64,000 nt of DNA, taken from positions 8,597 to 72,596 of the forward strand of contig CAZARR010000002.1 of the NCBI GenBank assembly GCA_964487665.1. Direction: 5' to 3'. Positions 21,444-62,528 of this stretch are shown piece by piece. The translations under genes and the position numbers were made by a program. The notes beneath the pieces were generated by a model. The model ran no database searches. It saw only the letters and a program-made list of their open reading frames with translations, and had not been told where the DNA came from. Numbering within the stretch: position 1 is the first letter of the stretch; the number at the start of each line of letters is the position of its first letter. The stretch is from an uncultured Pseudomonadales bacterium. Lineage in GTDB: Bacteria; Patescibacteriota; Microgenomatia; UBA1400; MFAQ01.

Positions 21444-21487
21444 GGCCTAATTCTCAATTGTCTACGCTCAATTGTCAATTTATTTAG

Positions 21488-21561
21488 TAGCAGGGGTGGG
21501 GATCGAACCCACGACCTGCGGTTTATGAATCCGCCGCTCTGACCATCTGAGCTACCCTGCC
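21488..21561 (-). tRNA. tRNA-Met (anticodon CAU; elongator, initiator or Ile2 identity not resolvable)
   Basis: A manual cloverleaf fold gives a 7-bp acceptor stem with G1-U72, D-arm GCUC/GAGC, anticodon loop UUCAUAA (CAU), T-arm GUGGG-UUCGAUC-CCCAC, discriminator A and no encoded CCA. Confidence 0.8.
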
Positions 21562-24254: not shown

Positions 24255-24282
24255 TATTCTTAAATAACCTAATTCAATTTTG

Positions 24283-24356
24283 TAGGCCGGGCAGGATTCG
24301 AACCTGCGACATCGAAGGTATAAGCTTCGCGCTCTAACCAACTGAGCTACCGGCCT
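24283..24356 (-). tRNA. tRNA-Ile (anticodon UAU)
   Basis: A clean manual cloverleaf: acceptor AGGCCGG/CCGGCCU, D-arm GCUC-AGUUGGUUA-GAGC, anticodon stem CGAAG/CUUCG with loop CUUAUAC (U33, anticodon U34-A35-U36, A37), variable AUGUC, T-arm GCAGG-UUCGAAU-CCUGC, discriminator A. Confidence 0.85.
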
Positions 24357-24390: not shown

Positions 24391-26715
24391 CTAAAGCTTG
24401 GCTCGTCTCTCGATTATTTCTTCGACCTCTTTCTCGTCCACGCCATACTTAAGTCTCGACATTTCTCGAATTAACCTCGCCACCTCCTTGCTTCCCTGGG
24501 CTCTTTCGGCTATCAAATCCCTTTTTACGTCCATGCTGAACGAAGGTACGGGAGTACCATTGACAATTGACTTTGCATAGAGAGTTTGTGCTGGAATATT
24601 TTGCAAATCGTTATCGTTAAATTGTGGGGTGAAAACGTCCTGCAACACCTTGGCATCATTTACACCCACTCTGTAGCTCATTACAGTCCCTACATTTCCA
24701 AAAATAGCATCTCTTACCTGTTCATCGAGTTGGCTCACAAACTGGTTTGCCAACACTAATCCAAGTGCATATTTCCTCGCTTCAGATAACATTTGAGCAA
24801 AGTCAGGGGTAGCAAAGTTTTGAAACTCGTCAACGTACAAATAAAAAGGTCGTCGCTCCGACTTTGGAATATCTTGCCTCGACAAAGCCGCCTGAAGCAC
24901 CTTTGGAACCAATACTAACCCCAAAAAGTTTGAATCCTCCTCTCCCAACAAGCCTTTCGCTAGTTTCAAAAAGACAATTTTTCCTTCGTCCATGGCTTTG
25001 CGAAAATTCAGCGTACTTACCGATTGACCAATGATGTTCCTGATCAACTTATTAGTTACAAAACGGCCAAATTTCGAAGCGATATAATCCAAAGTCTCCG
25101 ATTTGTGAAAGTCGCTTGTTTGGGCAATCTGATCAGTCCAATATCGACGCACGATTGGATCAGTCACTTTTGGTAACAACTCCTGAACGTACTTATTGTC
25201 TGTCAATGCTCTGTTAACCTCCACAAAAGTTGCTCCAGGCTCCACTGCTACCGTTAGCATTGCATTTCGAATCGCATGTTCAAACCTAGGGCCAATAATT
25301 CCAGTCTTATGTGGGTCATAAAGTTTGTACATCAAATTGATGATCGAGCTGGCAACGAAATGCATTTCCTCAATGTTCCGCACCTCCAACAGGTTAAAAC
25401 CCACAGGCATTTCTCTATCACTTGGGTCAAAAACAATAACGTCTTCAGCCCGCTCCGGCGGAACCATCTCCAATAGCTCCTCAATTCCATCTCCGTGTGG
25501 TTCCAGGAAACACAACCCCTTTCCTGCCCTCATATCCTGAATAATCATTGACTTTAACAACTCTGTCTTTCCCGTACCAGTCCTACCGATAATGTACATG
25601 TGGCGCATGCGGTCCTCCTCCGAAATATAAATATTTCGTTCCTTACCACGATAAATCGACCTACCCAACCACATCCCACTTTCAGGAAATCCTCCTGTTG
25701 CGGGCGCTGACTTGGCTGTCAACCAAAAAATATGTGGCGTTTCCACTGTTTTGTTAGGCATGTGCCACACCGTCGCTAATTCTTCACCTGACAACACCGA
25801 GTTATTCCCGAACAAAGATTGATACCGATAAACGAAATCAAGCATAAAACCGCTCTTAATTCGAATCTTTTTACTAGTAAATCCGTTCTGGTCCCCATTA
25901 AACTGAGCAAAGGCGCTTTTTAAGTTAGACAAATTAGCCTTGGCCTCTCCCTCCGTTGCTGCAGTACTTACAATTCTGATCGTTGTCAAAAACCCTGGTT
26001 TACCAATCTTGTTATCAATGGCCTCCAAATCTGCTGGGCTTATTTTAAACTTAGCCTTCTCGGGATCAGCTTCGCTTTTTTTAGTTTTTGAAATATACCC
26101 CTCCCCATTTTTTTTCCAGGCCGAGTCCGCAGGCGCCACAATTATTTGAACCGCTGCGGCTTGCCCGATAGCAAATTTCGAAAGGGAGGTGGTAATGGCC
26201 GCCAACGGATCGGTTGGCAACTCTTTGTAGGTCTTGATTGGTTTAAAGCTTTCCGAGCGCAAAACTAACTCTGCAAAAGCAACTTTTCCTCCTTTAGAGA
26301 ATATTGAATGCTCGTCCACCTCCTTTACCTGCACCCCCGGATACGCCCCCGACAGCTGCTTTTCAATTAACTCCACATTATCTAGATGACAACTGACATA
26401 AAACCTCACATCTTCTTTTTTGCCAACAATTTCAAAGGAAATGTGTGGTTGTGCTTTAAACCTTTGCCAGAATCCCCCCTTTTTTATTGAACTCAAAGCT
26501 GAGAACATCTGTTCAGCAGCATCTATCTTTACCTCATTATCTCTTGGAACCGCGACCTCAAGTAAAACAAACTTCAGGCTGACCTCCTCGCGATTGCTAA
26601 AACGTAAATACTGTAAAAACACCATCAACCCGATGGCCAACACAGCAACAAAAACCCCCAATATTAGCGCTCCGCCAAAAACGTAATAAGCAACTGTTGC
26701 CAAATCTATAGTCAT
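24391..26715 (-). CDS. membrane-anchored FtsK/HerA-superfamily P-loop ATPase resembling type IV coupling proteins (VirD4/TraD/TraG-like)
   Basis: N-terminal TM helices, a long pre-ATPase domain, Walker A YIIGRTGTGKTE followed by FLEPHGDG (compare coupling-protein DPKGD), Walker B YLYVDEFQNFA, and an RKxG-like ARKYALGLVLANQ; 774 aa. Confidence 0.6.
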   Translation of the reverse strand: MTIDLATVAYYVFGGALILGVFVAVLAIGLMVFLQYLRFSNREEVSLKFVLLEVAVPRDNEVKIDAAEQMFSALSSIKKGGFWQRFKAQPHISFEIVGKKEDVRFYVSCHLDNVELIEKQLSGAYPGVQVKEVDEHSIFSKGGKVAFAELVLRSESFKPIKTYKELPTDPLAAITTSLSKFAIGQAAAVQIIVAPADSAWKKNGEGYISKTKKSEADPEKAKFKISPADLEAIDNKIGKPGFLTTIRIVSTAATEGEAKANLSNLKSAFAQFNGDQNGFTSKKIRIKSGFMLDFVYRYQSLFGNNSVLSGEELATVWHMPNKTVETPHIFWLTAKSAPATGGFPESGMWLGRSIYRGKERNIYISEEDRMRHMYIIGRTGTGKTELLKSMIIQDMRAGKGLCFLEPHGDGIEELLEMVPPERAEDVIVFDPSDREMPVGFNLLEVRNIEEMHFVASSIINLMYKLYDPHKTGIIGPRFEHAIRNAMLTVAVEPGATFVEVNRALTDNKYVQELLPKVTDPIVRRYWTDQIAQTSDFHKSETLDYIASKFGRFVTNKLIRNIIGQSVSTLNFRKAMDEGKIVFLKLAKGLLGEEDSNFLGLVLVPKVLQAALSRQDIPKSERRPFYLYVDEFQNFATPDFAQMLSEARKYALGLVLANQFVSQLDEQVRDAIFGNVGTVMSYRVGVNDAKVLQDVFTPQFNDNDLQNIPAQTLYAKSIVNGTPVPSFSMDVKRDLIAERAQGSKEVARLIREMSRLKYGVDEKEVEEIIERRAKL

Positions 26716-30806: not shown

Positions 30807-33140
30807 GTGACAAAGAGAAAAATCATCCTATTGGTCGCATGCATTTTCATCGTCGTGGTGGCGACAATAGGTTTATTTATTTTTCTTTTGTTCAAAGACG
30901 TTCCCAACCCCCAGAAACTTACCAAATCTCCCGCTCCTGTGAGCACTCAAATATTTGATAGAAACAGCAAATTGCTCTATGAAGTTTATGTGGATCAAAA
31001 CCGCCTTCCTGTAAATATCAATGACGTACCAGATTACCTAAAAAAAGCTACCGTATCAATCGAAGACAAAAATTTTTATAAACATCATGGCCTGGACACG
31101 CGCGGAATATTACGCGCGGCTTTCAAATTAGCTACCGGCGGTCGCCTTGAGGGTGGTTCTACCATTACCCAACAATTAGTCAAGGTCGCTATCCTTTCCG
31201 ACAACCGGCGTACTGTCACTAGAAAAATTCGCGAGGCAGGACTAGCTATTTTTACCGAAATTCTTTATTCCAAAGATCAAATTCTCGAACTCTACCTCAA
31301 TCACGCCCCTTATGGAGGTACGGCTTATGGAATCGAAGCTGCATCAAAGGTATTTTTTGGAAAAACCTCCAAGGATCTTAATCTGGCCGAATCTGCCCTT
31401 TTGGCCGGACTACCCCAATCACCCACCAAATATTCCCCTTTTGGTGCCAACCCAGAGCTAGCCATAAATCGACAACACTTAGTTTTAGATCAAATGGCTC
31501 AGGACGGATATATCACCAAAGAACAAGCCGAGGAGGCAAAAAACCTTCCCCTGCATTTTGCTAACAATACCAAGTCTATCAAGGCACCCCACTTCTCGCT
31601 TATGGTCCGTGACCTTTTGGTGGATCGATACGGTGAAGATCGTGTTAATCTCGGTGGGCTTAAAGTGACAACCACTCTCGATCTTGATCTTCAGGAATAT
31701 GCCCAAGCCACTGTCAGTAGCGAAATAAACAAGGTTAAAAAATACAAAATTTCTAACGGAGCCTCCCTTATTACCCGTCCAAAAACCGGGGAGATACTCG
31801 CGATGGTTGGTTCAAAAGACTATTTCAGCTCTGATATCGATGGTAACGTCAACCTCACCACTCGTCTCCGCCAACCGGGAAGTTCAATTAAGCCAATTAA
31901 TTACGCTGTCGGACTACTTCGCGGATGGACAGCGAGCACCATGTACTTAGACATCCCTACTTGTTTTAGTGTCACCAACCAAAAACAATATTGCCCCAAG
32001 AACTACGACAACTCATTTCACGGACCAGTGCAAATGCGCTTTGCTTTAGGCAACTCCTACAATATTCCCGCCGTCAAGCAGCTAGCCCTTAACGGAATCG
32101 ACAGTTTTATCGCCACTGCCAGTGCTATGGGGATAACCACCTGGACAGATCCGAGCCGATACGGTCTATCTCTAACCCTTGGTGGCGGTGAGGTTACCAT
32201 GAGCGATATGTCTACCGCATTCGGTACCTTTGCCAATGCCGGAGTTACCGTTCCGCTAAATCCGATACTGAAAGTCGAAACATACAACGGAGAGGTATTA
32301 GAAGAAAACCGACCCAACGATCTTGCCGACGTCGTAAACACCTTGCCTCAAGAATGGTCTGACTTCTGGCAAAAGAGGAGTGAAATCGCCTCTGATATTT
32401 CTTACCAGTGCACTCAGTACAACCACCAATGCCTTCGTGTCTCACTCCCCGAAGGAGTCGCTTATATTATTTCTCACATTCTTCTCGACAACAACGCACG
32501 CACCGGAGCCTTTGGGCCCAACAGTCAACTCCTAATCCCCAACAAAAGTGTCTCAGTAAAAACTGGTACAACCAACGACCTACGGGACAACTGGACTATC
32601 GGATTTACACCTGACATTCTCGTTGCAACTTGGGTTGGCAACAACGATAACACACCAATGAGTTATGTCGCCTCCGGAGTCACGGGTGCATCATCAATCT
32701 GGCAAGCTCTTATGAGACGCGCGCTTAAACAACAGCCAGACCACTTTCCCAAACAACCAAACGACGTAGAAAGTAAAGTCATTTGTGCCAATACTGGGCT
32801 TGTTCCCAATGACCCCAATTCATGCCCAACAAGAACCGAACTATTTATCAAGGGTGTGTATCCACCCAATCAAATTCCCGAGAGAAAGCAAATTTGGGTG
32901 CGAAGATCCGATAAATACCCCCTATTACCCGGGGATACCACCGTTGACCTTGACCTCGAAGAACACACTATTATCAACGATCCGTTTACCCACGACTTTT
33001 GCCTCGACTGTACTTATCCTGTAAATGATAAGGGGACAACTCAATGGCCCACTTACAATATCAACTACGACACTTTTCGCATGTCCCCGCCATCTCCTCG
33101 AGACTACCTTGTCCTAGGCACCCCCACGCCCCAACCGTGA
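30807..33140 (+). CDS. class A penicillin-binding protein (bifunctional glycosyltransferase/transpeptidase), copy 1
   Basis: N-terminal TM, GT51 motifs EDKNFYKHHG and GGSTITQQLVK, transpeptidase SxxK (GSSIKP), SYN, and KTGTTNDLRDNWTIGF. Confidence 0.9.
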   Translation: MTKRKIILLVACIFIVVVATIGLFIFLLFKDVPNPQKLTKSPAPVSTQIFDRNSKLLYEVYVDQNRLPVNINDVPDYLKKATVSIEDKNFYKHHGLDTRGILRAAFKLATGGRLEGGSTITQQLVKVAILSDNRRTVTRKIREAGLAIFTEILYSKDQILELYLNHAPYGGTAYGIEAASKVFFGKTSKDLNLAESALLAGLPQSPTKYSPFGANPELAINRQHLVLDQMAQDGYITKEQAEEAKNLPLHFANNTKSIKAPHFSLMVRDLLVDRYGEDRVNLGGLKVTTTLDLDLQEYAQATVSSEINKVKKYKISNGASLITRPKTGEILAMVGSKDYFSSDIDGNVNLTTRLRQPGSSIKPINYAVGLLRGWTASTMYLDIPTCFSVTNQKQYCPKNYDNSFHGPVQMRFALGNSYNIPAVKQLALNGIDSFIATASAMGITTWTDPSRYGLSLTLGGGEVTMSDMSTAFGTFANAGVTVPLNPILKVETYNGEVLEENRPNDLADVVNTLPQEWSDFWQKRSEIASDISYQCTQYNHQCLRVSLPEGVAYIISHILLDNNARTGAFGPNSQLLIPNKSVSVKTGTTNDLRDNWTIGFTPDILVATWVGNNDNTPMSYVASGVTGASSIWQALMRRALKQQPDHFPKQPNDVESKVICANTGLVPNDPNSCPTRTELFIKGVYPPNQIPERKQIWVRRSDKYPLLPGDTTVDLDLEEHTIINDPFTHDFCLDCTYPVNDKGTTQWPTYNINYDTFRMSPPSPRDYLVLGTPTPQP

Positions 33141-34312
33141 ACAGAACATTGGCCCTGGCGACTTCGATACTTTTATCTATAGTCCTCCTCAGTCTGGTTG
33201 TGGTCTACAAAGTTCTACCCACCCTACCTCTACTTTCACCATCCGCTGTAATTTCGGATCTAGAGAATATGTTCAACTCCCGCTCCAATCAATTTCAAGT
33301 TTACGGATTTTTACCATTTTGGACACTTAATATGGTCGACACCACAGACCTTAAATCACTCACCCATCTAATATATTTCGGCATCGAAATTTCCTCTGAC
33401 GGGACACTAAAGTCAAACCTGAACAAAAAAGAATTAGAACCTGGCTGGGTTCAATTAAATTCTGCGAGTCTCAAAAAACTTCGCACCAATTTCCCTAACC
33501 GCAGTATTATCGTCGTCCGTAATATGAATTCGCAAGACATTGAGTCAATACTCAATAACCGCCAAGCATTTGAGCTATCCATCGAACAAATTATCAATCT
33601 TGTCAAAGTCAACAAATATCAAGGTGTCAATATTGACTTCGAGTCCTCAGATAGCTTTTCTCCAGAAACCCAAACCAACTTCACCAAGTGGATTTCCAAA
33701 CTGGTTGATGTCTGCCACTCCCAAGTTAAACATTGTGAGGTTAGTATCGACATTAATGCTGACTCCGCAGCCAAAGACCGTCTTTACCAACTAAAACCAT
33801 TAGGGTTAATAGCCGACAGGATCATTGTCATGGCATACGATTTTTACTATCGAAACAGCACCAAGTCAGGCCCTGTTGCTCCGTTAACCGGCAAGTGTAA
33901 AACACCAGAACAGATTAACTGCCTGGACTACGATATCAAGACAGCTATTTCTGATATCAGCCGTAGTGTTTCCCCCCATAAATTGATTTTAGGTATTCCA
34001 ACTTATGGCTATCTATGGACTACCACTGATGATTCCTTTCTATCAAATACGACGAGTCGCGGAGTATTTATAAGCCAAAGAGACATAGCGGCCTTGTTTA
34101 ATTCAGACAGCCCCCCAATTGCTTCATGGTCAGCACACACGCTAACTCCATACGCCATCATCAGGGAGAAAAAAGTTGTCAAACAAATTCACTACGAAAA
34201 TTCGCAATCAATTCAGGAAAAAATTAGATTCGCCCAAGCTAATGGCTTGGCAGGCATTGCCTATTGGGCGATTGGCTATCAAGAGCAATCCTTTTTGCCC
34301 CTTTTACCCTAG
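33137..34312 (+). CDS. glycoside hydrolase family 18-like protein with N-terminal membrane anchor
   Basis: YGFLPFW and LTHLIYFGIE with a DGxDxDWE-like GVNIDFES motif. The start is taken as GTG at 33137, overlapping the PBP stop as GTGA (TTG at 33149 is the alternative); the track start 33044 lies inside the PBP gene. Confidence 0.7.
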   Translation: MNRTLALATSILLSIVLLSLVVVYKVLPTLPLLSPSAVISDLENMFNSRSNQFQVYGFLPFWTLNMVDTTDLKSLTHLIYFGIEISSDGTLKSNLNKKELEPGWVQLNSASLKKLRTNFPNRSIIVVRNMNSQDIESILNNRQAFELSIEQIINLVKVNKYQGVNIDFESSDSFSPETQTNFTKWISKLVDVCHSQVKHCEVSIDINADSAAKDRLYQLKPLGLIADRIIVMAYDFYYRNSTKSGPVAPLTGKCKTPEQINCLDYDIKTAISDISRSVSPHKLILGIPTYGYLWTTTDDSFLSNTTSRGVFISQRDIAALFNSDSPPIASWSAHTLTPYAIIREKKVVKQIHYENSQSIQEKIRFAQANGLAGIAYWAIGYQEQSFLPLLP

Positions 34313-34337
34313 GTCAACGCTTGCTATTATATTCTCA

Positions 34338-36467
34338 ATGCCAGATACAACGATTTCTGGTTCAAAATTCAATAAATTAAACAAGTTACTATATCTCATC
34401 GGTCACCCATTTTTTCCGATACTTGTTTTTGTTATTCTAAAGTTAGCCAATACTTTTCACATAGTAAATCGTAGACGTCTAATTGCAACTCTATTCGTAA
34501 TTGCCATCACTCTCATATTCACCACTCAACTTAGACAACTAATTGTTAACCTGCCCAATCCGGAAAACCTCAAGTCAAAACCCCCCTTGCTTTCAACTAA
34601 AATTTTCGATCGACATGGCAACTTGCTCTACACTTTTTATAATTTAGAAAACCGCTCTTTGATAGAGCTTTCGGACTTGCCAAACTACGTACCCTTAACT
34701 TTCATCGCTATAGAGGACAAAAATTTCTACAAGCATAGGGGAATTTCGATCACAGGCATATTTAGAGCAGCCAGGAACAATCTACTCAAATCAGAATCTT
34801 TGCAGGGGGGATCAACCATAACTCAACAGCTTGTTAAAAACAGCCTTCTCACCAAAGATAAAACCTGGCAAAGAAAACTCAAAGAAATAATCCTCGCCGT
34901 TTTGGTGGAGAGACGGTATTCAAAACAAGACATTATTGAAATGTATCTCAATCAGGTTAATTTTGGCGGCCCAATCTATGGAATCGAAGAAGCTTCGCAA
35001 CAATATTTCGGTATTCCCGCCCGAAACCTCTCTCTTGCCCAGTCTGCCTTCCTAGCTGGTCTTCCCAAAGCTCCCACCTTGTTTTCTCCCTACGCAGATA
35101 ACTCTAGTGATCCCAAACAAAGACAGGTAACCATTCTTAATCGAATGCACGAACTCAAACTGGTAAGCGATGACGCTTATCAAAGCGCAATCCAACAGAC
35201 AATCATCATCAAACCCAATCAAAGAAAAATTATCGCTCCTCACTTTGTTATGTATATATACGATCTTTTAAAAGAAAACTTCTCCGAAAGTATAGTCCGG
35301 GAGGGAGGGCTTCGGGTTTATACGACACTTGACCAGAATATTCAGCAACTTGCCCAAGACGAAATTAACCAGGAGATTACCAATCTTGGCAAAAAATATC
35401 ATGTCAACAACGGAGCTTCACTGGTAATAAATCCTGCCACAGGGGAATTGTTAGCTATGGTTGGCTCGCTAAATTACTTTGACACCAAGATCGATGGACA
35501 GGTAAACCTCACCACAGCCCTCCGCCAACCTGGAAGTACCGTCAAACCGATTAATTACTCTCTAGCCCTCGAGTCAGGGATGACACCGGCATCCACCATC
35601 GAAGATCGGCCCATACAGATAAAACTGGATGATGGAACTACCTGGGTACCCAAAAATTATGACAATCGCTTTCATGGACCCCTGACCCTACGTAGCGCGC
35701 TAGCAAATTCATACAATATTCCAGCCATCAACACACTCTCAAAGTTTGGTCCAACACAAATGGCAAGCTTAGCAAAAGAGATGGGTCTTACCAGCTGGAA
35801 CAACCCGAATCGTTTTGGTCTATCGATAACCTTAGGAGCGCTCGAAACAAGTCTCCTCCAACTTTCTCAAGCCTACTCGGTTTTCGCAAATTACGGTAAA
35901 CAAATCCCCATTATTTCCATCACCAAGATTACCGACAGCCAAAATCGAGAGTTAACAATTAGCCCATGTAAACTCGCCCACCTGCCAGATAACTGTTTTG
36001 GTAAACAAATTATCAGCCCAGAAACTTCGTACACTATTACAGATATCCTTTCCGATAATTACGCACGAGCAAAAGCATTTGGTTTAAATTCTGTTCTCAA
36101 TACATCCCCACTAAGAACAATGGTTAAAACCGGAACAAGCAACAATTTAAGGGACAACTGGACCATTGGCTTTACACCAGATATTCTCGTTGCCACTTGG
36201 GTGGGAAACAATGACAACACCCCAATGAATGCAATTGCATCAGGAATAACTGGAGCCTCACCCATTTGGAATAGATTAATAACGAAACTCGCCAACCCGG
36301 CAACCCCCTGGTTTACTCCCCCTTCGAATCTTGCCAGAATCTTTTATTGCCCGGCCACCAATTCACAGGCTTGCCCAGACTGTCAAAACCGATATGAATA
36401 CTTTAGTGTCGACAAAAAACCTCGTCCCTGTCCTCCAAAAACTCAACAAGTAACTCAGAACTCGTAA
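34338..36467 (+). CDS. class A penicillin-binding protein, copy 2 (paralog)
   Basis: TM anchor, EDKNFYKHRG and GGSTITQQLVK, GSTVKP, and KTGTSNNLRDNWTIGFTPDILVATWVGNNDNTPM, near-identical to the copy-1 motif. The start is the ATG at 34338, just after the GH18 stop. Confidence 0.9.
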   Translation: MPDTTISGSKFNKLNKLLYLIGHPFFPILVFVILKLANTFHIVNRRRLIATLFVIAITLIFTTQLRQLIVNLPNPENLKSKPPLLSTKIFDRHGNLLYTFYNLENRSLIELSDLPNYVPLTFIAIEDKNFYKHRGISITGIFRAARNNLLKSESLQGGSTITQQLVKNSLLTKDKTWQRKLKEIILAVLVERRYSKQDIIEMYLNQVNFGGPIYGIEEASQQYFGIPARNLSLAQSAFLAGLPKAPTLFSPYADNSSDPKQRQVTILNRMHELKLVSDDAYQSAIQQTIIIKPNQRKIIAPHFVMYIYDLLKENFSESIVREGGLRVYTTLDQNIQQLAQDEINQEITNLGKKYHVNNGASLVINPATGELLAMVGSLNYFDTKIDGQVNLTTALRQPGSTVKPINYSLALESGMTPASTIEDRPIQIKLDDGTTWVPKNYDNRFHGPLTLRSALANSYNIPAINTLSKFGPTQMASLAKEMGLTSWNNPNRFGLSITLGALETSLLQLSQAYSVFANYGKQIPIISITKITDSQNRELTISPCKLAHLPDNCFGKQIISPETSYTITDILSDNYARAKAFGLNSVLNTSPLRTMVKTGTSNNLRDNWTIGFTPDILVATWVGNNDNTPMNAIASGITGASPIWNRLITKLANPATPWFTPPSNLARIFYCPATNSQACPDCQNRYEYFSVDKKPRPCPPKTQQVTQNS

Positions 36468-53672: not shown

Positions 53673-54149
53673 ATGAATAAAAAAACCCTTGCTGTATTGT
53701 CGCTCATCTGCTTACTTTCCTTAGGTCTCACCTACAAAACCTTATTCTCCAGCAAAAAACAAAACACCACACCCATAGCTAACCCGACCAACTTTCAAGA
53801 TTTATCTAACCAGGCTGTCCAAGGTGGACCCCGCGATAACCCTGAGGAGGCATACAAAACCTATTCCCACGACGCTTTCGTCAAGGATCCTGCCAAAAAA
53901 CGAGTCATCTTTTTCACCTCCCCCTCCTGCACTAGTTGCAAGCCAATCGAAAAAGAACTTACCGATTCCAAAGCTAGCATTCCCACTGACTACACAATAT
54001 TTGTCGCCGACCTCACTCAAGAAAAAGACCTAGCCGCCAAACTCGGGGTAAATTACCAACACACTTTTGTCGTTGTCGACCAAAACGGACAAAAAACCCT
54101 CAGTTGGAATGGGGGAGGTTTGCGCGAACTCCTCATTAACCTAAGATAA
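53673..54149 (+). CDS. secreted thioredoxin-like protein (CxxC)
   Basis: Signal peptide/anchor, then VIFFTSPSCTSCKP, a thioredoxin-fold CxxC in the expected context; 158 aa. Confidence 0.6.
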   Translation: MNKKTLAVLSLICLLSLGLTYKTLFSSKKQNTTPIANPTNFQDLSNQAVQGGPRDNPEEAYKTYSHDAFVKDPAKKRVIFFTSPSCTSCKPIEKELTDSKASIPTDYTIFVADLTQEKDLAAKLGVNYQHTFVVVDQNGQKTLSWNGGGLRELLINLR

Positions 54150-54915
54150 ACACAGCCAAATACAACAGTCCCACCAGAATTCGATAATATCCGAACCTTT
54201 TTAAGTCCCCTCTAGAAACGTACGACAAAAAAGCCTTCACCACGACCAACGCGCAGACAAAAGCCACCACAAAACCCAAAATCAATATTTGCACCTGTTT
54301 GCTGCCAAAAGAACCCGCACTCCTTACCAAATCAAGCCCTGTCGCCGCAAACATTGTTGGCAGGGACAACAAAAAAGAGAACTCTACCGCCTGCTTCCTC
54401 GTCAGACCCATTACCATTCCTCCGATTATCGTCGCTGCCGCTCGAGACACGCCTGGAATGACAGACAAAGATTGGAACAGTCCAATGGAAACCAGTTTTT
54501 TTTTGTCCAGTTTGTCGATGTCGCTAACTCCCGGACCCCTAGATCGCCCATTCGACTCAAACCATAGTATAAAAACCCCCCCCAACATCAAAGTTACTGC
54601 CACCAACACATCACTACCCAACAAGTATTGCTTAACAACTGGGTACAACAAAAGACCAACAAGCCCGGTTGGTAAAAACGCCACCACAATTTTCCACCAC
54701 CATTGCTTATGCCGCCACAAGGTATTTGCGTACAAACATGCCACCGCCAAAACTGCCCCCAATTGGATAAAAATTTCAAATGTCTTCACAAAGTCTGTCG
54801 AAGTAATCCCCAACAGCCGACCTACCAAAATCATATGTCCCGTCGAAGACACAGGGAGAAATTCAGTCAGCCCTTCGACTACTGCTAATACCACCGCCTG
54901 ATACCAAGTCAACAT
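54136..54915 (-). CDS. uppP: undecaprenyl-diphosphatase
   Basis: VVEGLTEFLPVSSTGH and the second motif around SRSGATI-like PGVSRAAATIIGG; 259 aa. Confidence 0.9.
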   Translation of the reverse strand: MLTWYQAVVLAVVEGLTEFLPVSSTGHMILVGRLLGITSTDFVKTFEIFIQLGAVLAVACLYANTLWRHKQWWWKIVVAFLPTGLVGLLLYPVVKQYLLGSDVLVAVTLMLGGVFILWFESNGRSRGPGVSDIDKLDKKKLVSIGLFQSLSVIPGVSRAAATIIGGMVMGLTRKQAVEFSFLLSLPTMFAATGLDLVRSAGSFGSKQVQILILGFVVAFVCALVVVKAFLSYVSRGDLKRFGYYRILVGLLYLAVFILG

Positions 54916-54961: not shown

Positions 54962-56782
54962 ATGAGGTTCCCCAAATCAGCCAACGCTCCCCAAGGCCTA
55001 GGCAATCTTTGGCGTGTCTACCTGAGCACCCAAAAGCTCATTTGGAATATTGACCACAAATTAGCCGCCGGTCTTGCTATTTCCAGTATTATTACCGGTT
55101 TACTTAATTACCCCCGAATTTTAATCACCAAAGCCTATCTAGATACCATTGTGGCGGCTATCAAAGTCGGCTCCCCACAACCATATTTTCTCACTCTTAT
55201 TTGGCTTACCCTGGGGAACTTGGCCATTAGCCAAATTGATAGCTACCTCAACAATTATAGTGGCAATAGTGAGCGTCTTTTAAACAGAATACTTCAAACC
55301 AAAGTCGGTATTAACATTGCCCGAAAACTTAACACTATTCCCGTTTCCGAAGCTGAAAAACCAGAAGTTCGCGATTTATCTCAAAGAGTCAATGACAACC
55401 TAAGTAGTCTCTGGCGGTTGCAACAAACAGTTAGTAACATACCAGAAACATTCTTTACCATTGTTTCCACCCTCATTCCTCTTATCACATATCTCCCCCT
55501 ATCAATCATCCCTGCCATCATCCTCGCTATTCCCGATATCATTATTGGCAACAAATACGCCAAAATCGGTTATGCCATCCGCTCCAAAAATGCCGCCCTC
55601 TGGCGCCTGTGGACTGCTTTCGAAGATTTTACCCTCAAAGGTCGCTATCTCTACGAAAACAAAATCCTTCGCCACACCGAGATCCTTTTTAAACGAGAAA
55701 ACAAAATCGCTCATAGAGTTTTTCTTGAGGATTTCAAACTCGATCTCGAAGCTACTCGAAAAAGACAAGGCACCAGATTTGTTATGGATCTGTTCGAACT
55801 TATCACAACCTTGTACTTGTTTACCCGAGCAGCTTACCAAACAATTTCCCTCGGTACTGCCCAGATTGCTATCCAATCAATCAGAAGTTTTATCGGCAGA
55901 CTTTCCTTCCTCATCCGTCAATGTAGTTCCCTTGTCGAGGACTACCTCTTTATCCAGGACTACGAAAAACTAATGTCTATCCCCGACGAGGAACCGCACA
56001 AGGGAGTTCACTTTCCAGCGAGGATAACTTATGGCCTAGAATTCCGCCACGTTTGGTTTAAATATGGACAAAACCCCCACTGGACCATCAAAGATATCTC
56101 TTTTGTCCTCGATCCCACCGACAATCTAGCCATCGTAGGTCAAAATGGAGCTGGCAAATCAACCCTGATAAAACTTATCTGCCGCTTTTACCAGCCCCAA
56201 CGCGGAGAAATCCTTCTTAATGGTAAAAACATTAACGACTATTCACTGTCTGAATACCAGCACCACCTTTCTGCCCTTTTTCAAGATTTTGCCCAATACC
56301 CATTCAACGCTCGAGATAATATCGCCTTTGGTGATATTATCAAGAAATCGGCTATTAGCGACATTCGCCAAGCCGCGAAACTTACCGGAATTGACGACTT
56401 TATTTTGTCCCTTCCCCACAAATACAAAAACTCGCTCGACAAGGAATTCAAAGGCGGAATTGAACCCTCCAAGGGCCAATGGCAACGTATTGCCCTGGCT
56501 CGAGCGCTATATCGCGACTCAGTCATTATCATTCTCGACGAACCAACCTCGAACGTTGATCCCGAGTCCGAAGAAGAAATCTTTCAGCGTCTTCTTCGAG
56601 TTGCTCAAAACAAAATGGTCATTCTTGTTTCCCATCGCTTCAGCACCGTCCGCCGGGCTGACAAAATATTAGTCCTCGAAGATGGTCGCGTCATCGAATA
56701 CGACAACCATACTAATCTAATTAGACATCGTGGCCGTTACCATCAGCTTTTTACTGCTCAGGCCAAAAATTATCAACAGTGA
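54962..56782 (+). CDS. ABC transporter, fused permease/ATP-binding (type I exporter, MsbA-like)
   Basis: 6-TM N-terminal domain; Walker A GQNGAGKSTL, a degenerate signature PSKGQWQRIALARAL, Walker B IIILDEPTS, and the H-loop. Confidence 0.9.
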   Translation: MRFPKSANAPQGLGNLWRVYLSTQKLIWNIDHKLAAGLAISSIITGLLNYPRILITKAYLDTIVAAIKVGSPQPYFLTLIWLTLGNLAISQIDSYLNNYSGNSERLLNRILQTKVGINIARKLNTIPVSEAEKPEVRDLSQRVNDNLSSLWRLQQTVSNIPETFFTIVSTLIPLITYLPLSIIPAIILAIPDIIIGNKYAKIGYAIRSKNAALWRLWTAFEDFTLKGRYLYENKILRHTEILFKRENKIAHRVFLEDFKLDLEATRKRQGTRFVMDLFELITTLYLFTRAAYQTISLGTAQIAIQSIRSFIGRLSFLIRQCSSLVEDYLFIQDYEKLMSIPDEEPHKGVHFPARITYGLEFRHVWFKYGQNPHWTIKDISFVLDPTDNLAIVGQNGAGKSTLIKLICRFYQPQRGEILLNGKNINDYSLSEYQHHLSALFQDFAQYPFNARDNIAFGDIIKKSAISDIRQAAKLTGIDDFILSLPHKYKNSLDKEFKGGIEPSKGQWQRIALARALYRDSVIIILDEPTSNVDPESEEEIFQRLLRVAQNKMVILVSHRFSTVRRADKILVLEDGRVIEYDNHTNLIRHRGRYHQLFTAQAKNYQQ

Positions 56783-59253: not shown

Positions 59254-59877
59254 TTAAGCGAACTTAGTCATTCCCAGGTTAGCCACAAAAGTTGACCCCG
59301 GTTTAACCACCACAAACATTGAGTGGTAATCGTCTACTTGCTTTTTTCTGCCACTCTTAGGGTTAATCACGGTGTTGATATCCCACCACCGCCTTTCAAA
59401 CTCCAAAACACTGAATCGCCTGTCCTTTCCGGCAAAAGTCTTATATGGATCAGCAATTCTTATCAAGTTACCTCGCACGTCAACCGCCGTCACAATGCTG
59501 TAATGCCCATCATCGTCATCACCACCCACCTCATCACTGTCGGGGTATTCAAACAAACCTTGCCACTCTACCCCAACTGGGCACTTGAATTCGTTAATTA
59601 ACAACGATAAATCCATAATTGACGAATTGTGTTTGTACCAAAACTCTAGCTCCGGCGCCAATACATTTGCTGCCTTACCTAATCCACCAACGGTCATTCC
59701 TAGCTTTTTGATTGTTTTAACCACTCTGGCAGCTCTGACCACGCTATCCTGCTCCACTTTCACCGACCAAAAGCCCAGTAACATCTGCAAAACGGCCGGC
59801 CCGCAATAGACATTAGTTTTCTGCTCGAGGCGGGGCAACTCGGGAAAGTCAGTTTTTTGGAGCCAATTCAAGAGCAT
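59254..59877 (-). CDS. C39-like papain-fold cysteine peptidase/acyltransferase domain protein (cytoplasmic)
   Basis: Catalytic Cys context NVYCGPAVLQMLLGFW and His context DDGHYSIVTAVDVRGNLIRIADP, typical of Peptidase_C39_2/BtrH-like domains. There is no signal peptide. Confidence 0.55.
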   Translation of the reverse strand: MLLNWLQKTDFPELPRLEQKTNVYCGPAVLQMLLGFWSVKVEQDSVVRAARVVKTIKKLGMTVGGLGKAANVLAPELEFWYKHNSSIMDLSLLINEFKCPVGVEWQGLFEYPDSDEVGGDDDDGHYSIVTAVDVRGNLIRIADPYKTFAGKDRRFSVLEFERRWWDINTVINPKSGRKKQVDDYHSMFVVVKPGSTFVANLGMTKFA

Positions 59878-60919
59878 ATTTTGTTAGCATGCTAGCAACA
59901 ATTGTCTCGAATTTTACACCATACATCAATGCCACCTCGGTAAAAGGTAGTCCCAAATCCGGCCCAAAAGCAGTGTTTGGGTTCGCATCTGTAAAATATG
60001 GAGTGTTTGTGCGTTGATCGTAACGGATATCAAACTTGGCATAGTCTTTGTAGTACAGACCCTGAAACGCTCTGACCGCCAACCTGGCTACCTTTGTCCG
60101 CAGAGGTTCCTCAACTGGCTTATATTTATAAGCATTGAGGTGGTCATACGACTCAATACTAGTGAAATAATGCTTACCATCAGGCATAATTCCGAACTCC
60201 TTCTCACCCATAAATACATGCTTTTTGTTTCCGTCATCAAACACGCATACCGTCAACTCAGGACCGTCAACAAACTGCTCGACAATTACGGGTTGTTTGT
60301 AATCCGCAATCATTTTGTCAACCTTCTTTTGTGCCTCCTTAACCTTCTCCTTTACCGCCTTGTTATCTATCCCCACACTGCCACCGCTACTGTTCAATTT
60401 CACAATCAGGGGGAGCCCCAAATCTTCTTGAACCTTGGTCCCTACTCTGCGAATAAATTGAAAAGCAGGTGTGGGAATGTCATAACCCATGAGTAACCTC
60501 TTGGTCAGGTTTCTGTCGTTTCCTATCACCATCCCGGCCATCCCCGCCCCAGTGTAAGGGATGTTAGACAGCTCCAGCGCGGCTGGTACCGATGTTTGCA
60601 GGTTATCTTTACCCTTCAGGGTATCCACCAAGTTCAAAACCAAGGCCGGCTTGTCTACCAACAGATTCGTCAAAAAATATTGATTTCCTGGCAGAGTTTT
60701 TACCTCAACGCCTAAACCCTTTATCACCTCTGCCACCTGAGTGGAACGCTCTTCCACCTCCACTTCGGCCCGATAGGCATCTTCAGTCGGGAACCACTCC
60801 CTTTCCACATGTGAATACGCTACCACCACCAAACCCAATCCCTTCAACGCATCTTTATCAACCCGTAAATCCGATTGAAGCGATACCGAACCTTCATCCG
60901 AAACATTATTTCTTAGCAT
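59849..60919 (-). CDS. D-alanine--D-alanine ligase family ATP-grasp enzyme (divergent)
   Basis: LQTSVPAALELSNIPYTGAGMAGMVIGNDRNLTKRLL aligns with Ddl LQGxLExxxxPYxGxGxxAxAxxMDKxxxKxL. ATP-grasp motifs LIVKLNSSGGSVGI and the C-terminal RYD...YFTDANPNTAFGP are present, but the GEDG loop is replaced by KGKDN. Confidence 0.7.
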   Translation of the reverse strand: MLRNNVSDEGSVSLQSDLRVDKDALKGLGLVVVAYSHVEREWFPTEDAYRAEVEVEERSTQVAEVIKGLGVEVKTLPGNQYFLTNLLVDKPALVLNLVDTLKGKDNLQTSVPAALELSNIPYTGAGMAGMVIGNDRNLTKRLLMGYDIPTPAFQFIRRVGTKVQEDLGLPLIVKLNSSGGSVGIDNKAVKEKVKEAQKKVDKMIADYKQPVIVEQFVDGPELTVCVFDDGNKKHVFMGEKEFGIMPDGKHYFTSIESYDHLNAYKYKPVEEPLRTKVARLAVRAFQGLYYKDYAKFDIRYDQRTNTPYFTDANPNTAFGPDLGLPFTEVALMYGVKFETIVASMLTKYALELAPKN

Positions 60920-60972
60920 ACAAACATGTTACTACGAAAAAAATCCCATAATCAACATGCTAATATGAATTT

Positions 60973-61200
60973 GTGTCCTCTTGCGAATACTGTTCAGCCC
61001 CAGATAACTATTGCCAAATATCAACAAGAGTATTTTACGAGAATTTCTTTGACCACAATAACGACAAGAAACCTCTCCCCACCGGCGCGGCCGTGGCCTT
61101 TACTGAAGATGATCGCTGGTATTATTGTTGTCAACGACCAGAGACTTGCGACCATTTCCTAGTAAGATCAGCGACAAACAATCCAGAGCCAGTCCTGTAA
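60973..61200 (+). CDS. small Cys-rich protein (putative zinc-binding), hypothetical
   Basis: 75 aa with CEYC...C near the N-terminus and YYCCQRPETCDH near the C-terminus; 10 nt upstream of the SET gene. Confidence 0.4.
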   Translation: MSSCEYCSAPDNYCQISTRVFYENFFDHNNDKKPLPTGAAVAFTEDDRWYYCCQRPETCDHFLVRSATNNPEPVL

Positions 61201-61210
61201 AATTTACACC

Positions 61211-61591
61211 ATGACACACACTGTTCACGTCAAAAAAATCCGCAGCAAGGGTCGGGGCGTATTCGCCCTTCAGAATTTTAACGTTGGTGATATCGTCGAG
61301 CGATGTCATGTGATCGTCCTCACCCCAACCGAACGTAAACATTGTGAAAAGACTGTTCTCAACCATTACCTTTATCCTTGGCGAAGCACCAGAAGCGCCG
61401 CCATCGTCCTCGGCCACGGTTTTATCTACAATCACTCGTACTCCCCAAATGCCGACTGGAAACAAGACTTTCGCTCAAAGATGATGGTTTATAGAGCCAT
61501 TAAACCTATAAAAAAAGGTGAAGAAATCACTGTTAACTACAATGGCGAACCGGACGACACCACCCCCATCGACTGGTTCGATGTGGTCTAA
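61211..61591 (+). CDS. minimal SET-domain protein (putative lysine methyltransferase)
   Basis: GRGVFALQNFNVGDIVERC (SET N-terminus), the NHSYSPN signature (compare NHSCxPN), and GEEITVNY (the EELxxxY tyrosine); 126 aa. Confidence 0.7.
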   Translation: MTHTVHVKKIRSKGRGVFALQNFNVGDIVERCHVIVLTPTERKHCEKTVLNHYLYPWRSTRSAAIVLGHGFIYNHSYSPNADWKQDFRSKMMVYRAIKPIKKGEEITVNYNGEPDDTTPIDWFDVV

Positions 61592-62528
61592 AATATACGC
61601 CATTAACAAAATGGCAAACAAGAAGATACCACCACCGACTAGCCCGACACCGTCAACCAATCCCATTCTATCTACCAAAACTTTCCTCAGAAATCTTCTT
61701 TCGATTTTCTTTCAACTGCCCCCACGATTACAGAAAAAACGAACAGCCATTTTTCACGCCTATCTTTATCTCTGTTTTCAAAGAATCGTTTTGGAAATTA
61801 TTTTCCGACAAAAAGTCCGACAAACTTCAATCTTTGGCCTCCATATTAATTTCGCTACTCTCTCCCAATATATTCATCAATTCGAGGCCAATTTCATTCA
61901 AAACGACTACTATTTCGAAACACATTCGCGAACACCTTTGATTATCGATTGCGGCGCCAATACAGGCGACACCACCAGCTACTTTCGTTTCCTGTATCCC
62001 CAATCCCGAATTATTTGTTTCGAGCCAGAGCCCCTTGCTTTTTCACTATTATCTCAGTTAGTATCCAACAACAAACTTACCAATGTCACCCTCCATCAAC
62101 TGGCTCTATCTGATCGTAGAGGGTCGAAAGTCATCTACGCTAACCCCAACCAGCCCGCGTCTGATATTACCAGTTTTTATCGCAGTCCCGATCCCGGAAG
62201 AACCCAAATCCGTCTGGCCGCCACCACTAAAGCTGTCCAATTGTCGCGTTACATCTCCACCCCCGTCGACCTTCTTAAGCTTGATATCGAGGGTGCCGAG
62301 CGAGAGGTTATTCCCCAACTAGCAAAAGCCAACAAACTAAAACTTTTTCGCCATATCATCATTGAATATCACCACCACTTGACCCCTGGTGATGACCAAT
62401 TTTCTCAGATACTTAAAATCCTCGAAGATAATCATTTTACTTATCAGATCTCAACTCCACTCAAATTTACCTATCAAATAAATAAATTTCAGGATATTCA
62501 CATTCATTGTTTCCAAAAACCAATTTAG
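61581..62528 (+). CDS. FkbM-family methyltransferase
   Basis: IDCGANTGDTTSYF, ICFEPEP and LLKLDIEGAEREV are the FkbM-domain hallmarks. The start is the ATG at 61581, overlapping the SET stop (61611 is the alternative); the track start 61518 lies inside the SET gene. Confidence 0.8.
   Translation: MWSKIYAINKMANKKIPPPTSPTPSTNPILSTKTFLRNLLSIFFQLPPRLQKKRTAIFHAYLYLCFQRIVLEIIFRQKVRQTSIFGLHINFATLSQYIHQFEANFIQNDYYFETHSRTPLIIDCGANTGDTTSYFRFLYPQSRIICFEPEPLAFSLLSQLVSNNKLTNVTLHQLALSDRRGSKVIYANPNQPASDITSFYRSPDPGRTQIRLAATTKAVQLSRYISTPVDLLKLDIEGAEREVIPQLAKANKLKLFRHIIIEYHHHLTPGDDQFSQILKILEDNHFTYQISTPLKFTYQINKFQDIHIHCFQKPI

Follow-up and report, generated by a model that had tools for sequence, protein, structure and literature searches.

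A divergent Ddl-family ATP-grasp ligase and a C39-like papain-fold enzyme form a conserved gene pair in Microgenomates bacteria

Within the window (the whole 64,000-nucleotide stretch of DNA that was analysed), an initial annotation had described a divergent locus of five ORFs, and all of them are present at the coordinates given there (Table 1). The domain assignments (Ddl-family ATP-grasp, C39-like, SET and FkbM) were upheld by Pfam and NCBIfam profile searches, and the coordinates agree with the 29-nt overlap described for the minus strand, where the start of the C39-like ORF overlaps the stop of the ATP-grasp gene. Start and stop codons had been described as overlapping on the plus strand as well. 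This holds for SET and FkbM, which share 11 nt (the SET stop codon occupies 61589-61591, and the FkbM start is placed at the ATG at 61581 both by the sequence and by JGI, whose call is 315 aa long), but the Cys-rich ORF and SET are separated by a 10-nt gap.

Table 1. Features of the locus, in window coordinates.
Feature	Coordinates	Strand	Remarks
Ddl-family ATP-grasp ligase, divergent	59849..60919	-	356 aa; gene 1 of conserved pair
C39/phytochelatin-synthase-like papain-fold enzyme, standalone, cytoplasmic	59254..59877	-	207 aa; gene 2 of pair
Divergent intergenic region, pair versus SET	60920..61210	.	holds unsupported 75-aa Cys-rich ORF
Cys-rich ORF	60973-61200	+	75 aa, GTG start, 6 Cys; no supporting gene call
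Predicted minimal SET-domain methyltransferase	61211..61591	+	126 aa; neighbour outside conserved pair
FkbM-family methyltransferase	61581..62528	+	315 aa; neighbour outside conserved pair

The ORF for the Cys-rich mini-protein is unlikely to be a real gene. It matched no family in profile searches and is absent from the gene calls of the source annotation; tblastn against 96 related loci gave no match for it, and no gene-product record for it was found anywhere. If the ORF is discounted, the divergent intergenic region becomes 291 nt long, rather than 53 nt, and it contains no Rfam match. The 75-aa Cys-rich ORF is itself overlapped by a 78-aa ORF in a different frame. The SET assignment is predicted from a Pfam SET match over residues 14-111 (61.5 bits versus a cutoff of 22.4), and the FkbM protein matches both TIGR01444 fkbM_fam (97.7 bits versus 37.7) and Methyltransf_21 (PF05050; 58.9 versus 22.7).

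The five ORFs had been proposed to form a peptide or protein-tag modification module, in which a ligase, a peptidase or transamidase and two methyltransferases would act with a Cys-rich substrate or adaptor. The tight packing of the genes in the window, including the SET/FkbM overlap, is consistent with this idea, as is the presence of SET beside the pair in one further, distantly related lineage (L059/L099), whose ATP-grasp proteins share 67% identity with the window's. By a rough estimate that allots one SET gene to each genome of 1000 genes, two such SET adjacencies among about 81 genomes are slightly more than expected by chance. However, this is the only other lineage in which SET adjoins the pair, and FkbM and the Cys-rich ORF, the latter lacking a homologue or gene call, adjoin it only on the window's own contig (0 of 82 other ATP-grasp loci, and 0 of 16 SET loci). 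Apart from L099, the SET loci have no pair nearby: the pair, FkbM and the Cys-rich ORF were all absent near 13 other SET loci that are clearly related and retain some flank (kilobases of it in 8 of the 13), and these 13 include all the closer SET homologues (63-71% identity), in varied contexts unrelated to the pair. FkbM is more plausibly grouped with the membrane proteins that come after it, several of which are PMT/PMT_2 proteins (GT-C type). Since conservation of the minus-strand pair does not extend to the plus-strand genes, an outcome that the initial annotation had itself set against its proposal, the five-gene module is unsupported and we consider it very improbable; SET, FkbM and the Cys-rich ORF adjoin the pair by chance.

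In contrast, the minus-strand pair is conserved. We compared 83 distinct related loci, from about 80 species and otherwise unrelated contexts. Of these, 81 have enough sequence to judge the arrangement, and 69 of them carry the C39-like gene immediately downstream of the ATP-grasp gene on the same strand. Clustering of all ORFs of 70 aa or longer that lie within 5 kb, across the 83 loci, revealed no third conserved gene beside the pair, with any other neighbour recurring in at most 14 of 83. The ABC protein encoded at 54962-56782 of the window is without a C39 domain, and its adjacency to the pair is not conserved. The overlap between the two genes, 29 nt in the window, is 17-29 nt in L002, L059 and L107, and the pair has been kept by at least 155 species of Microgenomates, which are ultra-small bacteria. 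In a soil metagenome, the two are naturally fused as one 524-aa protein (P0241; Pfam domains PF07478 and PF13529), which shares 54% identity with the ATP-grasp protein over residues 1-321 and 39% with the C39-like protein over residues 333-517. The ATP-grasp gene is without an adjoining C39-like gene in about 12 loci, 4 of which have an unrelated protein of 427-444 aa in its position, and a RimJ/RimL-type GNAT (Acetyltransf_3) is fused to or adjoins the C39-like partner in about 18 loci. Adjacency and natural fusion bear out the association of the two enzymes that had first been suggested and, judged from these sequence comparisons, the two genes do belong together in function, as an uncharacterised operon.

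The ATP-grasp protein matches Pfam Dala_Dala_lig_C (PF07478) at 65 bits, but its scores are under half of the curated cutoffs for the NCBIfam Ddl models (107 versus 243 for NF002378; 99 versus 246 for TIGR01205), and Pfam search did not detect in it the N-terminal domain PF01820 (Dala_Dala_lig_N) that is present in canonical Microgenomates Ddl proteins. When an AF2 model (mean pLDDT 76) was compared with the PDB using Foldseek, the best 50 matches were all Ddl-type (Ddl, and the D-Ala:D-lactate ligase LmDdl2), with TM scores of 0.62-0.70, normalised to the query. The protein resembles Ddl and VanA/VanC-type ligases in its three-domain ATP-grasp fold, and in having kept their ATP/Mg2+ ligands, although it is only ~24% identical to E. 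coli DdlB. Residues were mapped to DdlB by hhalign (98.8% probability). The ligands K144, E180, E187, D257, E270 and N272 correspond to K174, E214, E221, D297, D311 and N313, which are invariant in 83 of 83 ATP-grasp sequences, with D311 being Asp for Glu. In contrast, DdlB H63, E68, S150, K215, R255, G276 and S281 correspond to D99, K/R104, G180, S257, K295, A317 and a variable residue, and Y216, retained as Y258, is the sole residue kept among H63, E68, S150, K215, Y216, R255 and S281. The reported replacement of the GEDG loop is evident in the same alignment, where DdlB H63-G-R-G-G-E68-D-G stands against D99-T-L-K-G-K104-D-N. An equivalent of DdlB Glu15, E39, is proposed by motif matching only, and 16 of the 83 sequences have Gln or Asp there. 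The ligase is therefore predicted as likely active but re-specified, and the rebuilt substrate pocket suggests that its product is something other than D-Ala-D-Ala.

Canonical Ddl is common among Microgenomates, and in three related genomes (L011, L012 and L107/L108) a canonical Ddl with 39-40% identity to E. coli DdlB and all motifs present is encoded on the same contig as the ATP-grasp orthologue, in agreement with the earlier suggestion that the window's gene is a divergent paralog. A canonical ddl elsewhere in the genome, which the initial annotation had proposed as a test of paralogy, is thus present in these relatives; the 64-kb window itself holds no other ddl. Several source records annotate the ATP-grasp protein as D-alanine-D-alanine ligase. 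This annotation, the Ddl fold, and the lack of a further ddl in the window would all suit a housekeeping D-Ala-D-Ala ligase of the host that has diverged rapidly, but the sub-cutoff scores, the undetected N-terminal Pfam domain, the replacement of six substrate-site residues (H63, E68, S150, K215, R255 and S281) and the coexistence with canonical Ddl leave that explanation extremely unlikely. We conclude that the protein is a Ddl paralog and, in all likelihood, not the housekeeping ligase, and that its public label is probably wrong. Its best database homologues reach 79% identity. It also evolves more slowly than canonical Ddl (62-73% identity across related loci in full-length alignment, versus 59% for canonical Ddl between two Shapirobacteria), which could indicate a macromolecular substrate, a point against the small-peptide model described below.

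The C39-like ORF scores 24.5 bits for Peptidase_C39 and 23.4 bits for C39_2, values that are borderline for a single sequence; 24 of 24 aligned homologues match both families, and 9 of 24 also match Pfam Phytochelatin. The protein has a papain fold, with an intact and conserved Gln-Cys-His-Asp catalytic set. The source annotation contains a 176-aa version starting at Met32, which loses the invariant Arg16, Gln19 and Cys25, and for this reason we take the 207-aa ORF as the correct gene. Among known structures, the nearest are those of C39 domains, of the pseudomurein endoisopeptidase PeiR and of Nostoc Alr0975, a phytochelatin-synthase-like enzyme that cleaves glutathione and is the best PDB profile match; CtaG and CcbD rank well under the C39, PeiR and PCS hydrolases. 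Identity to Alr0975 (MEROPS C83) and to C39 leader peptidase domains is just 15-22%, and compared with them the C39-like protein has extra decorations, including an Asp/Glu-rich loop before the catalytic His that could bind a cationic substrate. Unlike C39 bacteriocin-leader peptidases, it is standalone and cytoplasmic, with no ABC transporter fusion; no double-glycine precursor peptide was found near the pair, and no precursor peptide gene is conserved across the loci. Because the catalytic set is conserved and the fold neighbours are short-peptide hydrolases and transpeptidases, the C39-like partner is likely to be active.

A role in stem-peptide or cell-wall modification had been suggested on the basis of neighbouring genes for PBPs, uppP and GT-C-like membrane proteins. 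In the window, the PBP genes are 23-29 kb away (30807-33140 and 34176-36467) and uppP is 4.3 kb away (54136-54915). Some backing for a cell-wall link comes from Shapirobacteria, where the pair resembles Ddl in its context, lying in an alr-murF-ATPgrasp-C39 operon (alr, 297 bits; murF-like, 164-180 bits) that is divergent from ddl. Only one lineage shows this linkage (4 of the 83 loci, with L107/L108 in addition), and outside it the neighbours are housekeeping genes without a common theme.

These observations can be accommodated, tentatively, in a model that we favour without holding it firmly, in which a ligase and an amidase or transpeptidase work as a pair on one small peptide, most likely at the D-Ala end of peptidoglycan-precursor metabolism, with the other three genes unrelated. 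The two genes would be translationally coupled, ATP-grasp followed by C39-like, and their products would act jointly on a single small-molecule substrate. The ATP-grasp enzyme would most likely use the chemistry of Ddl, in which ATP activates a carboxylate to an acyl phosphate that is then attacked by an amine. The C39-like enzyme, with its Cys-His-Asp residues and its place in the C39/PeiR/phytochelatin-synthase cluster, would most likely take up this small peptide or amide as a thioester, which it might then hydrolyse (as an amidase, for control or proofreading) or transfer to an acceptor (as a transpeptidase). Cooperation between an ATP-grasp ligase and a papain-fold enzyme has precedents, discussed below, in trypanothione synthetase-amidase (PMC2427367) and in closthioamide CtaD/CtaG and butirosin (PMC7183216). 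The pair would differ from the Van systems in having a cysteine enzyme as its fixed partner where they have the zinc dipeptidase VanX, and in lacking an adjacent VanH. A more far-reaching form of the model, which we think rather unlikely, is a new cytoplasmic cell-wall-precursor step across Microgenomates, in which the Ddl paralog builds an alternative dipeptide or stem-peptide branch that the cysteine peptidase edits or transfers; it would be VanA/VanX-like or Asl-like, constitutive rather than a form of resistance, with lineages varying it through the 427-444-aa partners, GNAT or second-ligase steps.

Another possibility, to which we give little weight, is that the pair has no cell-wall role, and builds and degrades (or polymerises) a small-molecule conjugate in the cytoplasm, for example a thiol peptide or polyamine amide, much as glutathionylspermidine/trypanothione synthetase-amidase does, or glutathione synthetase together with phytochelatin synthase. 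Trypanothione synthetase-amidase combines an ATP-grasp amide synthetase with a papain-fold cysteine amidase that cleaves its own product, an architecture mirrored by the P0241 fusion (PMC2427367). The resemblance is of logic only, a ligase coupled, and sometimes fused, to a papain-fold enzyme, since the components are Ddl-type versus GSP_synth and C39-type versus CHAP, and the fusion order is ligase then peptidase; in the window proteins and P0241, Pfam gives PF07478 with PF13529/PF03412, and GSP_synth and CHAP were not found. The match to Alr0975, the Phytochelatin hits among the homologues, the acidic loop that could take a cationic substrate, and the absence of nearby cell-wall genes in most loci are consistent with a conjugate of this kind, but glutathione and polyamine genes do not recur near the pair, and the Shapirobacteria operon favours D-Ala chemistry.

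The pair could also write and erase a protein modification, with the ATP-grasp enzyme attaching an amino acid to some conserved protein, from which the papain-fold enzyme would remove it, by analogy with tubulin tyrosine ligase (TTL) and vasohibin, or with RimK. The unusually high conservation of the ATP-grasp protein (62-79% identity across many candidate lineages) and the GNAT associated with the partner point in this direction. We find it quite unlikely, however, because the modelled fold is Ddl-type, the N-terminal domain included, and Ddl enzymes use free amino acids; furthermore, similarity to the RimK/TTL family is limited to the shared fold, and a candidate target gene is not conserved nearby. 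Closthioamide CtaD/CtaG and butirosin BtrJ/BtrH, like the pair described here, combine an ATP-grasp enzyme with a C39/BtrH-family papain-fold protein, which carries out acyl transfer with a Cys-His-Asp triad (PMC7183216). A thiotemplated secondary-metabolite pathway like these, in which a carrier-bound amino acid would be loaded or extended by the ATP-grasp enzyme, with the papain-fold enzyme serving as transacylase, is improbable, since no carrier protein (PCP/ACP), decarboxylase or any third gene is conserved within 5 kb of the pair (83 loci), CtaG and CcbD fall well behind the hydrolases as structural matches, and retention in so many reduced-genome species is unlike an accessory natural-product cluster.

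Candidate-phyla-radiation genomes are tiny, yet at least 155 species keep the pair, with 62-79% identity, suggesting that it is likely to matter to their biology. At least one annotation shortens the C39-like partner so that the catalytic cysteine is lost. If, as we favour, the pair edits peptidoglycan precursors, it would define a novel chemotype of the cell wall and, as an editor of D-Ala-type peptides that relies on cysteine, an enzyme class of its own; if it instead makes a small conjugate of a thiol or polyamine, this would be an unexpected metabolism in organisms thought to be nearly devoid of metabolism.

The five open reading frames of the locus were all present in the window as the initial annotation had described them, and its observations were largely right: the domain calls held, with Dala_Dala_lig_C in the 356-aa ATP-grasp protein (here, the ligase), Peptidase_C39 and C39_2 in the 207-aa C39-like protein (the partner), SET in the 126-aa protein and FkbM in the product of the last gene, and the 29-nt overlap between the two minus-strand genes was real. 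The FkbM gene starts at ATG 61581, with an 11-nt overlap with the SET stop, and the 75-aa Cys-rich ORF starts with GTG. The window is the reverse complement of a section of a 157-kb JGI metagenome contig from a Microgenomates-type organism. In the source annotation, the partner (protein P0121) is a 176-aa protein starting at Met32, which loses invariant Arg16 and Gln19 and catalytic Cys25; since this call deletes the catalytic cysteine, the 207-aa ORF is the right version, and homologues agree. A promoter and terminator scan and an Rfam search of the locus gave nothing informative, and a defence-system reading was rejected because PADLOC returned no match.

Coordinates of the features described here are collected in the table. 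The window encodes a tRNA-Ile with a UAU anticodon; to our knowledge this is not common among bacteria, which mostly decode AUA with a CAU tRNA modified by lysidine. Just past the 3' end of the window, beyond a series of large membrane proteins that include PMT/PMT_2 (GT-C) types, the same contig has a RimK/YheCD-type ATP-grasp gene about 10 kb from the pair. On the plus strand of the window (1-64000), C greatly exceeded G in every 2-kb bin, regardless of gene orientation (GC skew -0.21 to -0.44); for the Microgenomates order UBA1400, an asymmetry of this kind across the entire chromosome is already on record (PMC7143001).

Coordinates of features in the window and at related loci (L-handles)
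Feature	Locus	Position	Strand	Remark
C39-like gene (partner)	window	59254-59877	-	207 aa
ATP-grasp gene (ligase)	window	59849-60919	-	356 aa
Cys-rich ORF	window	60973-61200	+	75 aa
SET gene	window	61211-61591	+	126 aa
FkbM gene	window	61581-62528	+	315 aa
ATP-dependent DNA ligase	window	10671-12377	-	
tRNA-Met	window	21487-21561		
tRNA-Ile (UAU)	window	24282-24356	-	
TrwB/TraG-like type IV coupling protein	window	24391-26715	-	
Two class A PBPs either side of a GH18 hydrolase	window	30807-36467	+	
RimK/YheCD-type ATP-grasp gene	L001	1-883		window's contig
ATP-grasp/C39-like fusion P0241	L106	605-2179		524 aa
ATP-grasp relatives in Aenigmarchaeota and Dojkabacteria, respectively	L105; L103	5431-9869; 6001-7086		
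alr operon with pair	L107	5878-10873		Shapirobacteria
GNAT, fused or standalone	L004; L052	11164-12408; 8570-9106		examples
Third Ddl-like ATP-grasp type	L031	11644-12666		about 340 aa; also L027, L067, L068, L072, L075, L079, L084
427-444-aa family	L029; L045; L085; L036	10992-12326; 5052-6371; 4999-6282; 1643-2491		

The ligase has hundreds of close homologues, with 69-79% identity among the best 120 listed; the named ones came from Shapiro-, Collier-, Woese-, Gottesman-, Roizman- and Beckwithbacteria, along with generic Microgenomates or Patescibacteria records. Species-representative genomes yielded 155 ATP-grasp relatives, and 80 of these loci, analysed with 10-kb flanks, made up 83 distinct loci when combined with those from other look-ups. 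Of the 81 loci whose sequence extended far enough, 69 had the C39-like gene directly downstream of the ATP-grasp gene on the same strand, and when all adjacent ORFs were clustered, no other neighbour recurred in more than 14 of the 83. The two domains also occur in one chain in P0241, a soil metagenome protein, and this natural fusion is strong evidence that the ligase and its partner act together. ATP-grasp relatives with 35-40% identity in one Dojkabacteria and one Aenigmarchaeota genome had no C39-like neighbour; in the latter, a MAG of a DPANN archaeon, the gene is followed by one for a 451-aa protein without a family and then by a ThiF-like E1 enzyme. No description of the pair was found in the searchable literature.

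The initial annotation had suggested that all five genes could be one module for peptide, protein-tag or stem-peptide modification, of which only the minus-strand pair stood. When the five proteins were compared by tblastn with 86 ATP-grasp loci and 16 SET loci, nothing recurred except the pair. Among the 83 distinct ATP-grasp loci, the FkbM gene and the Cys-rich ORF adjoin the pair solely on the window's own contig, and the SET gene stands beside it at one other locus only (L059, Roizmanbacteria), on the same strand and 3' of the C39-like gene. A reciprocal metagenome scan with SET gave 16 loci, only one of which (L099) contained the pair, in the arrangement of L059; closer SET homologues (63-71% identity) were in varied contexts, with neither FkbM nor a small Cys-rich ORF, and no equivalent of that ORF was found upstream of SET at other SET loci. 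The Cys-rich ORF had no family match, no tblastn match among 96 related loci, and no place in the source gene calls or on record as a product, and was rejected as a gene. With the FkbM gene and Cys-rich ORF confined to this contig and SET found with the pair in one more lineage, a five-gene module is not supported, and the conserved unit is a two-gene operon of the ATP-grasp and C39-like genes.

The fold of the ligase is that of a Ddl-type enzyme: the top 50 PDB matches of its AF2 model (mean pLDDT 76) were all Ddl or the D-Ala:D-lactate ligase LmDdl2. Against curated Ddl models it scored 99-107 bits, where cutoffs are near 245, and the N-terminal Ddl Pfam domain was undetected in the protein. 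Residues were mapped by profile-profile alignment with canonical Ddl (98.8% probability) and by aligning 83 sequences, in which the ATP/Mg ligands K174, E214, E221, D297, D311 and N313 were invariant. E. coli DdlB residues H63, E68, S150, K215, R255, G276 and S281 correspond to D99, K/R104, G180, S257, K295, A317 and a variable residue, respectively; by a motif-based match, E39 would occupy the position of DdlB E15, where 16 of the 83 sequences have Gln or Asp instead. The ligase gene is the only Ddl-like gene within the 64-kb window. Canonical Ddl is common in Microgenomates, and the check for a ddl elsewhere, suggested in the initial annotation, was positive in related genomes, where it lies on the same contig as a ligase orthologue (L011, L012, L107/L108) and encodes proteins with all classical motifs and 39-40% identity to DdlB. 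Taken together, these findings make the ligase gene a re-specified Ddl paralog.

Compared with known structures, the partner scored highest with the ComA C39 domain (16.4), the pseudomurein endoisopeptidase PeiR (16.2) and a B. anthracis C39-like protein (16.1), followed by the Nostoc phytochelatin-synthase-like Alr0975 (14.6) and the carrier-dependent transacylases CtaG (11.4) and CcbD (9.4). Alr0975 was its top match in a PDB profile search (E 1e-4) and in Foldseek. All 24 aligned homologues matched Pfam C39 and C39_2, and 9 of them also matched Phytochelatin. Gln19, Cys25, His125 and Asp143 were present in 68-71 of 71 sequences, and the partner, which belongs to the C39/PCS cluster, is probably catalytically active as a cysteine hydrolase or transpeptidase. 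Since no signal peptide or membrane segment was visible and no ABC transporter was attached, it is cytoplasmic; it is not a bacteriocin-leader peptidase.

Additions to the pair differed among lineages. In Shapirobacteria (L107/L108, L011), it supplies the last two genes of a compact operon, alr - murF-like - ATP-grasp - C39, with canonical ddl divergent; of the three extra genes, L012 carries the murF-like one and ddl, with alr undetected, and L007 and L010 carry just the murF-like one. At about 18 Collierbacteria-type loci, a RimJ/RimL-type GNAT (Acetyltransf_3) either makes an N-terminal fusion with the C39-like protein, giving proteins of 394-417 aa, or stands alone just upstream of the ATP-grasp gene. 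An apparent second C39 paralog upstream at these loci was rejected, as it consisted mostly of standalone GNATs clustered in via the fusions; a real second C39-like gene apparently occurs in L019 and L033 only, the latter having two adjoining ORFs of 215 and 210 aa directly after the ATP-grasp gene, assigned by cluster membership.

Woesebacteria-type loci carry a third Ddl-like ATP-grasp gene 3' of the C39-like gene, directly or one short ORF on. This type was found at nine loci including L031, with 54-83% identity to the L031 protein at the other eight; a more distant relative is in the same position in L076 and close by in L029 and L045. At 181-197 bits it is nearer Ddl than the window's ligase, but still below the Ddl cutoffs, and the L031 sequence reads as keeping K215 and R255. 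In other organisms, relatives of this type occur as two ATP-grasp units joined in tandem, about 680 aa long (P0266, P0275); these were rejected as a link between the two ligase types because both halves resemble the third type. At four loci, the gene directly following the ATP-grasp gene is not the C39-like one but encodes a 427-444-aa protein without a detectable family, with conserved motifs GCQT, HTEED and CGWGP, which may be a non-homologous replacement. GCQT and HTEED had raised the suspicion of a C45/Ntn-type hydrolase in L029, L045 and L085, which was rejected when Pfam and PDB profile searches were empty; the protein had no significant similarity to the 451-aa Aenigmarchaeota neighbour.

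ATP-grasp ligases that work with papain-fold enzymes are already known, and the pair resembles them; coupled action of its two proteins is well supported. Precedents for such cooperation are of three sorts. TTL and vasohibin are a writer/eraser pair acting on proteins, and a protein substrate for the ligase is possible, the slow evolution of the ligase keeping it in play; no target gene or carrier-protein gene conserved near the pair was found. In closthioamide and butirosin, an ATP-grasp enzyme and a papain-fold partner work by carrier-dependent transacylation (PMC7183216), and in trypanothione synthetase-amidase, synthetase and amidase act on the same product (PMC2427367). The Ddl-type fold, the short-peptide hydrolases and transpeptidases among the partner's structural neighbours, the lack of a conserved carrier or target gene, the fusion and the alr-murF-ddl context together favour a ligase and an amidase or transpeptidase that would both act on one small peptide or amide. 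Such a small-molecule substrate would most plausibly belong to the D-Ala branch of peptidoglycan-precursor metabolism, a cell-wall link suggested by a single lineage. If a role in cell-wall editing were true, the interest of the pair would rise.
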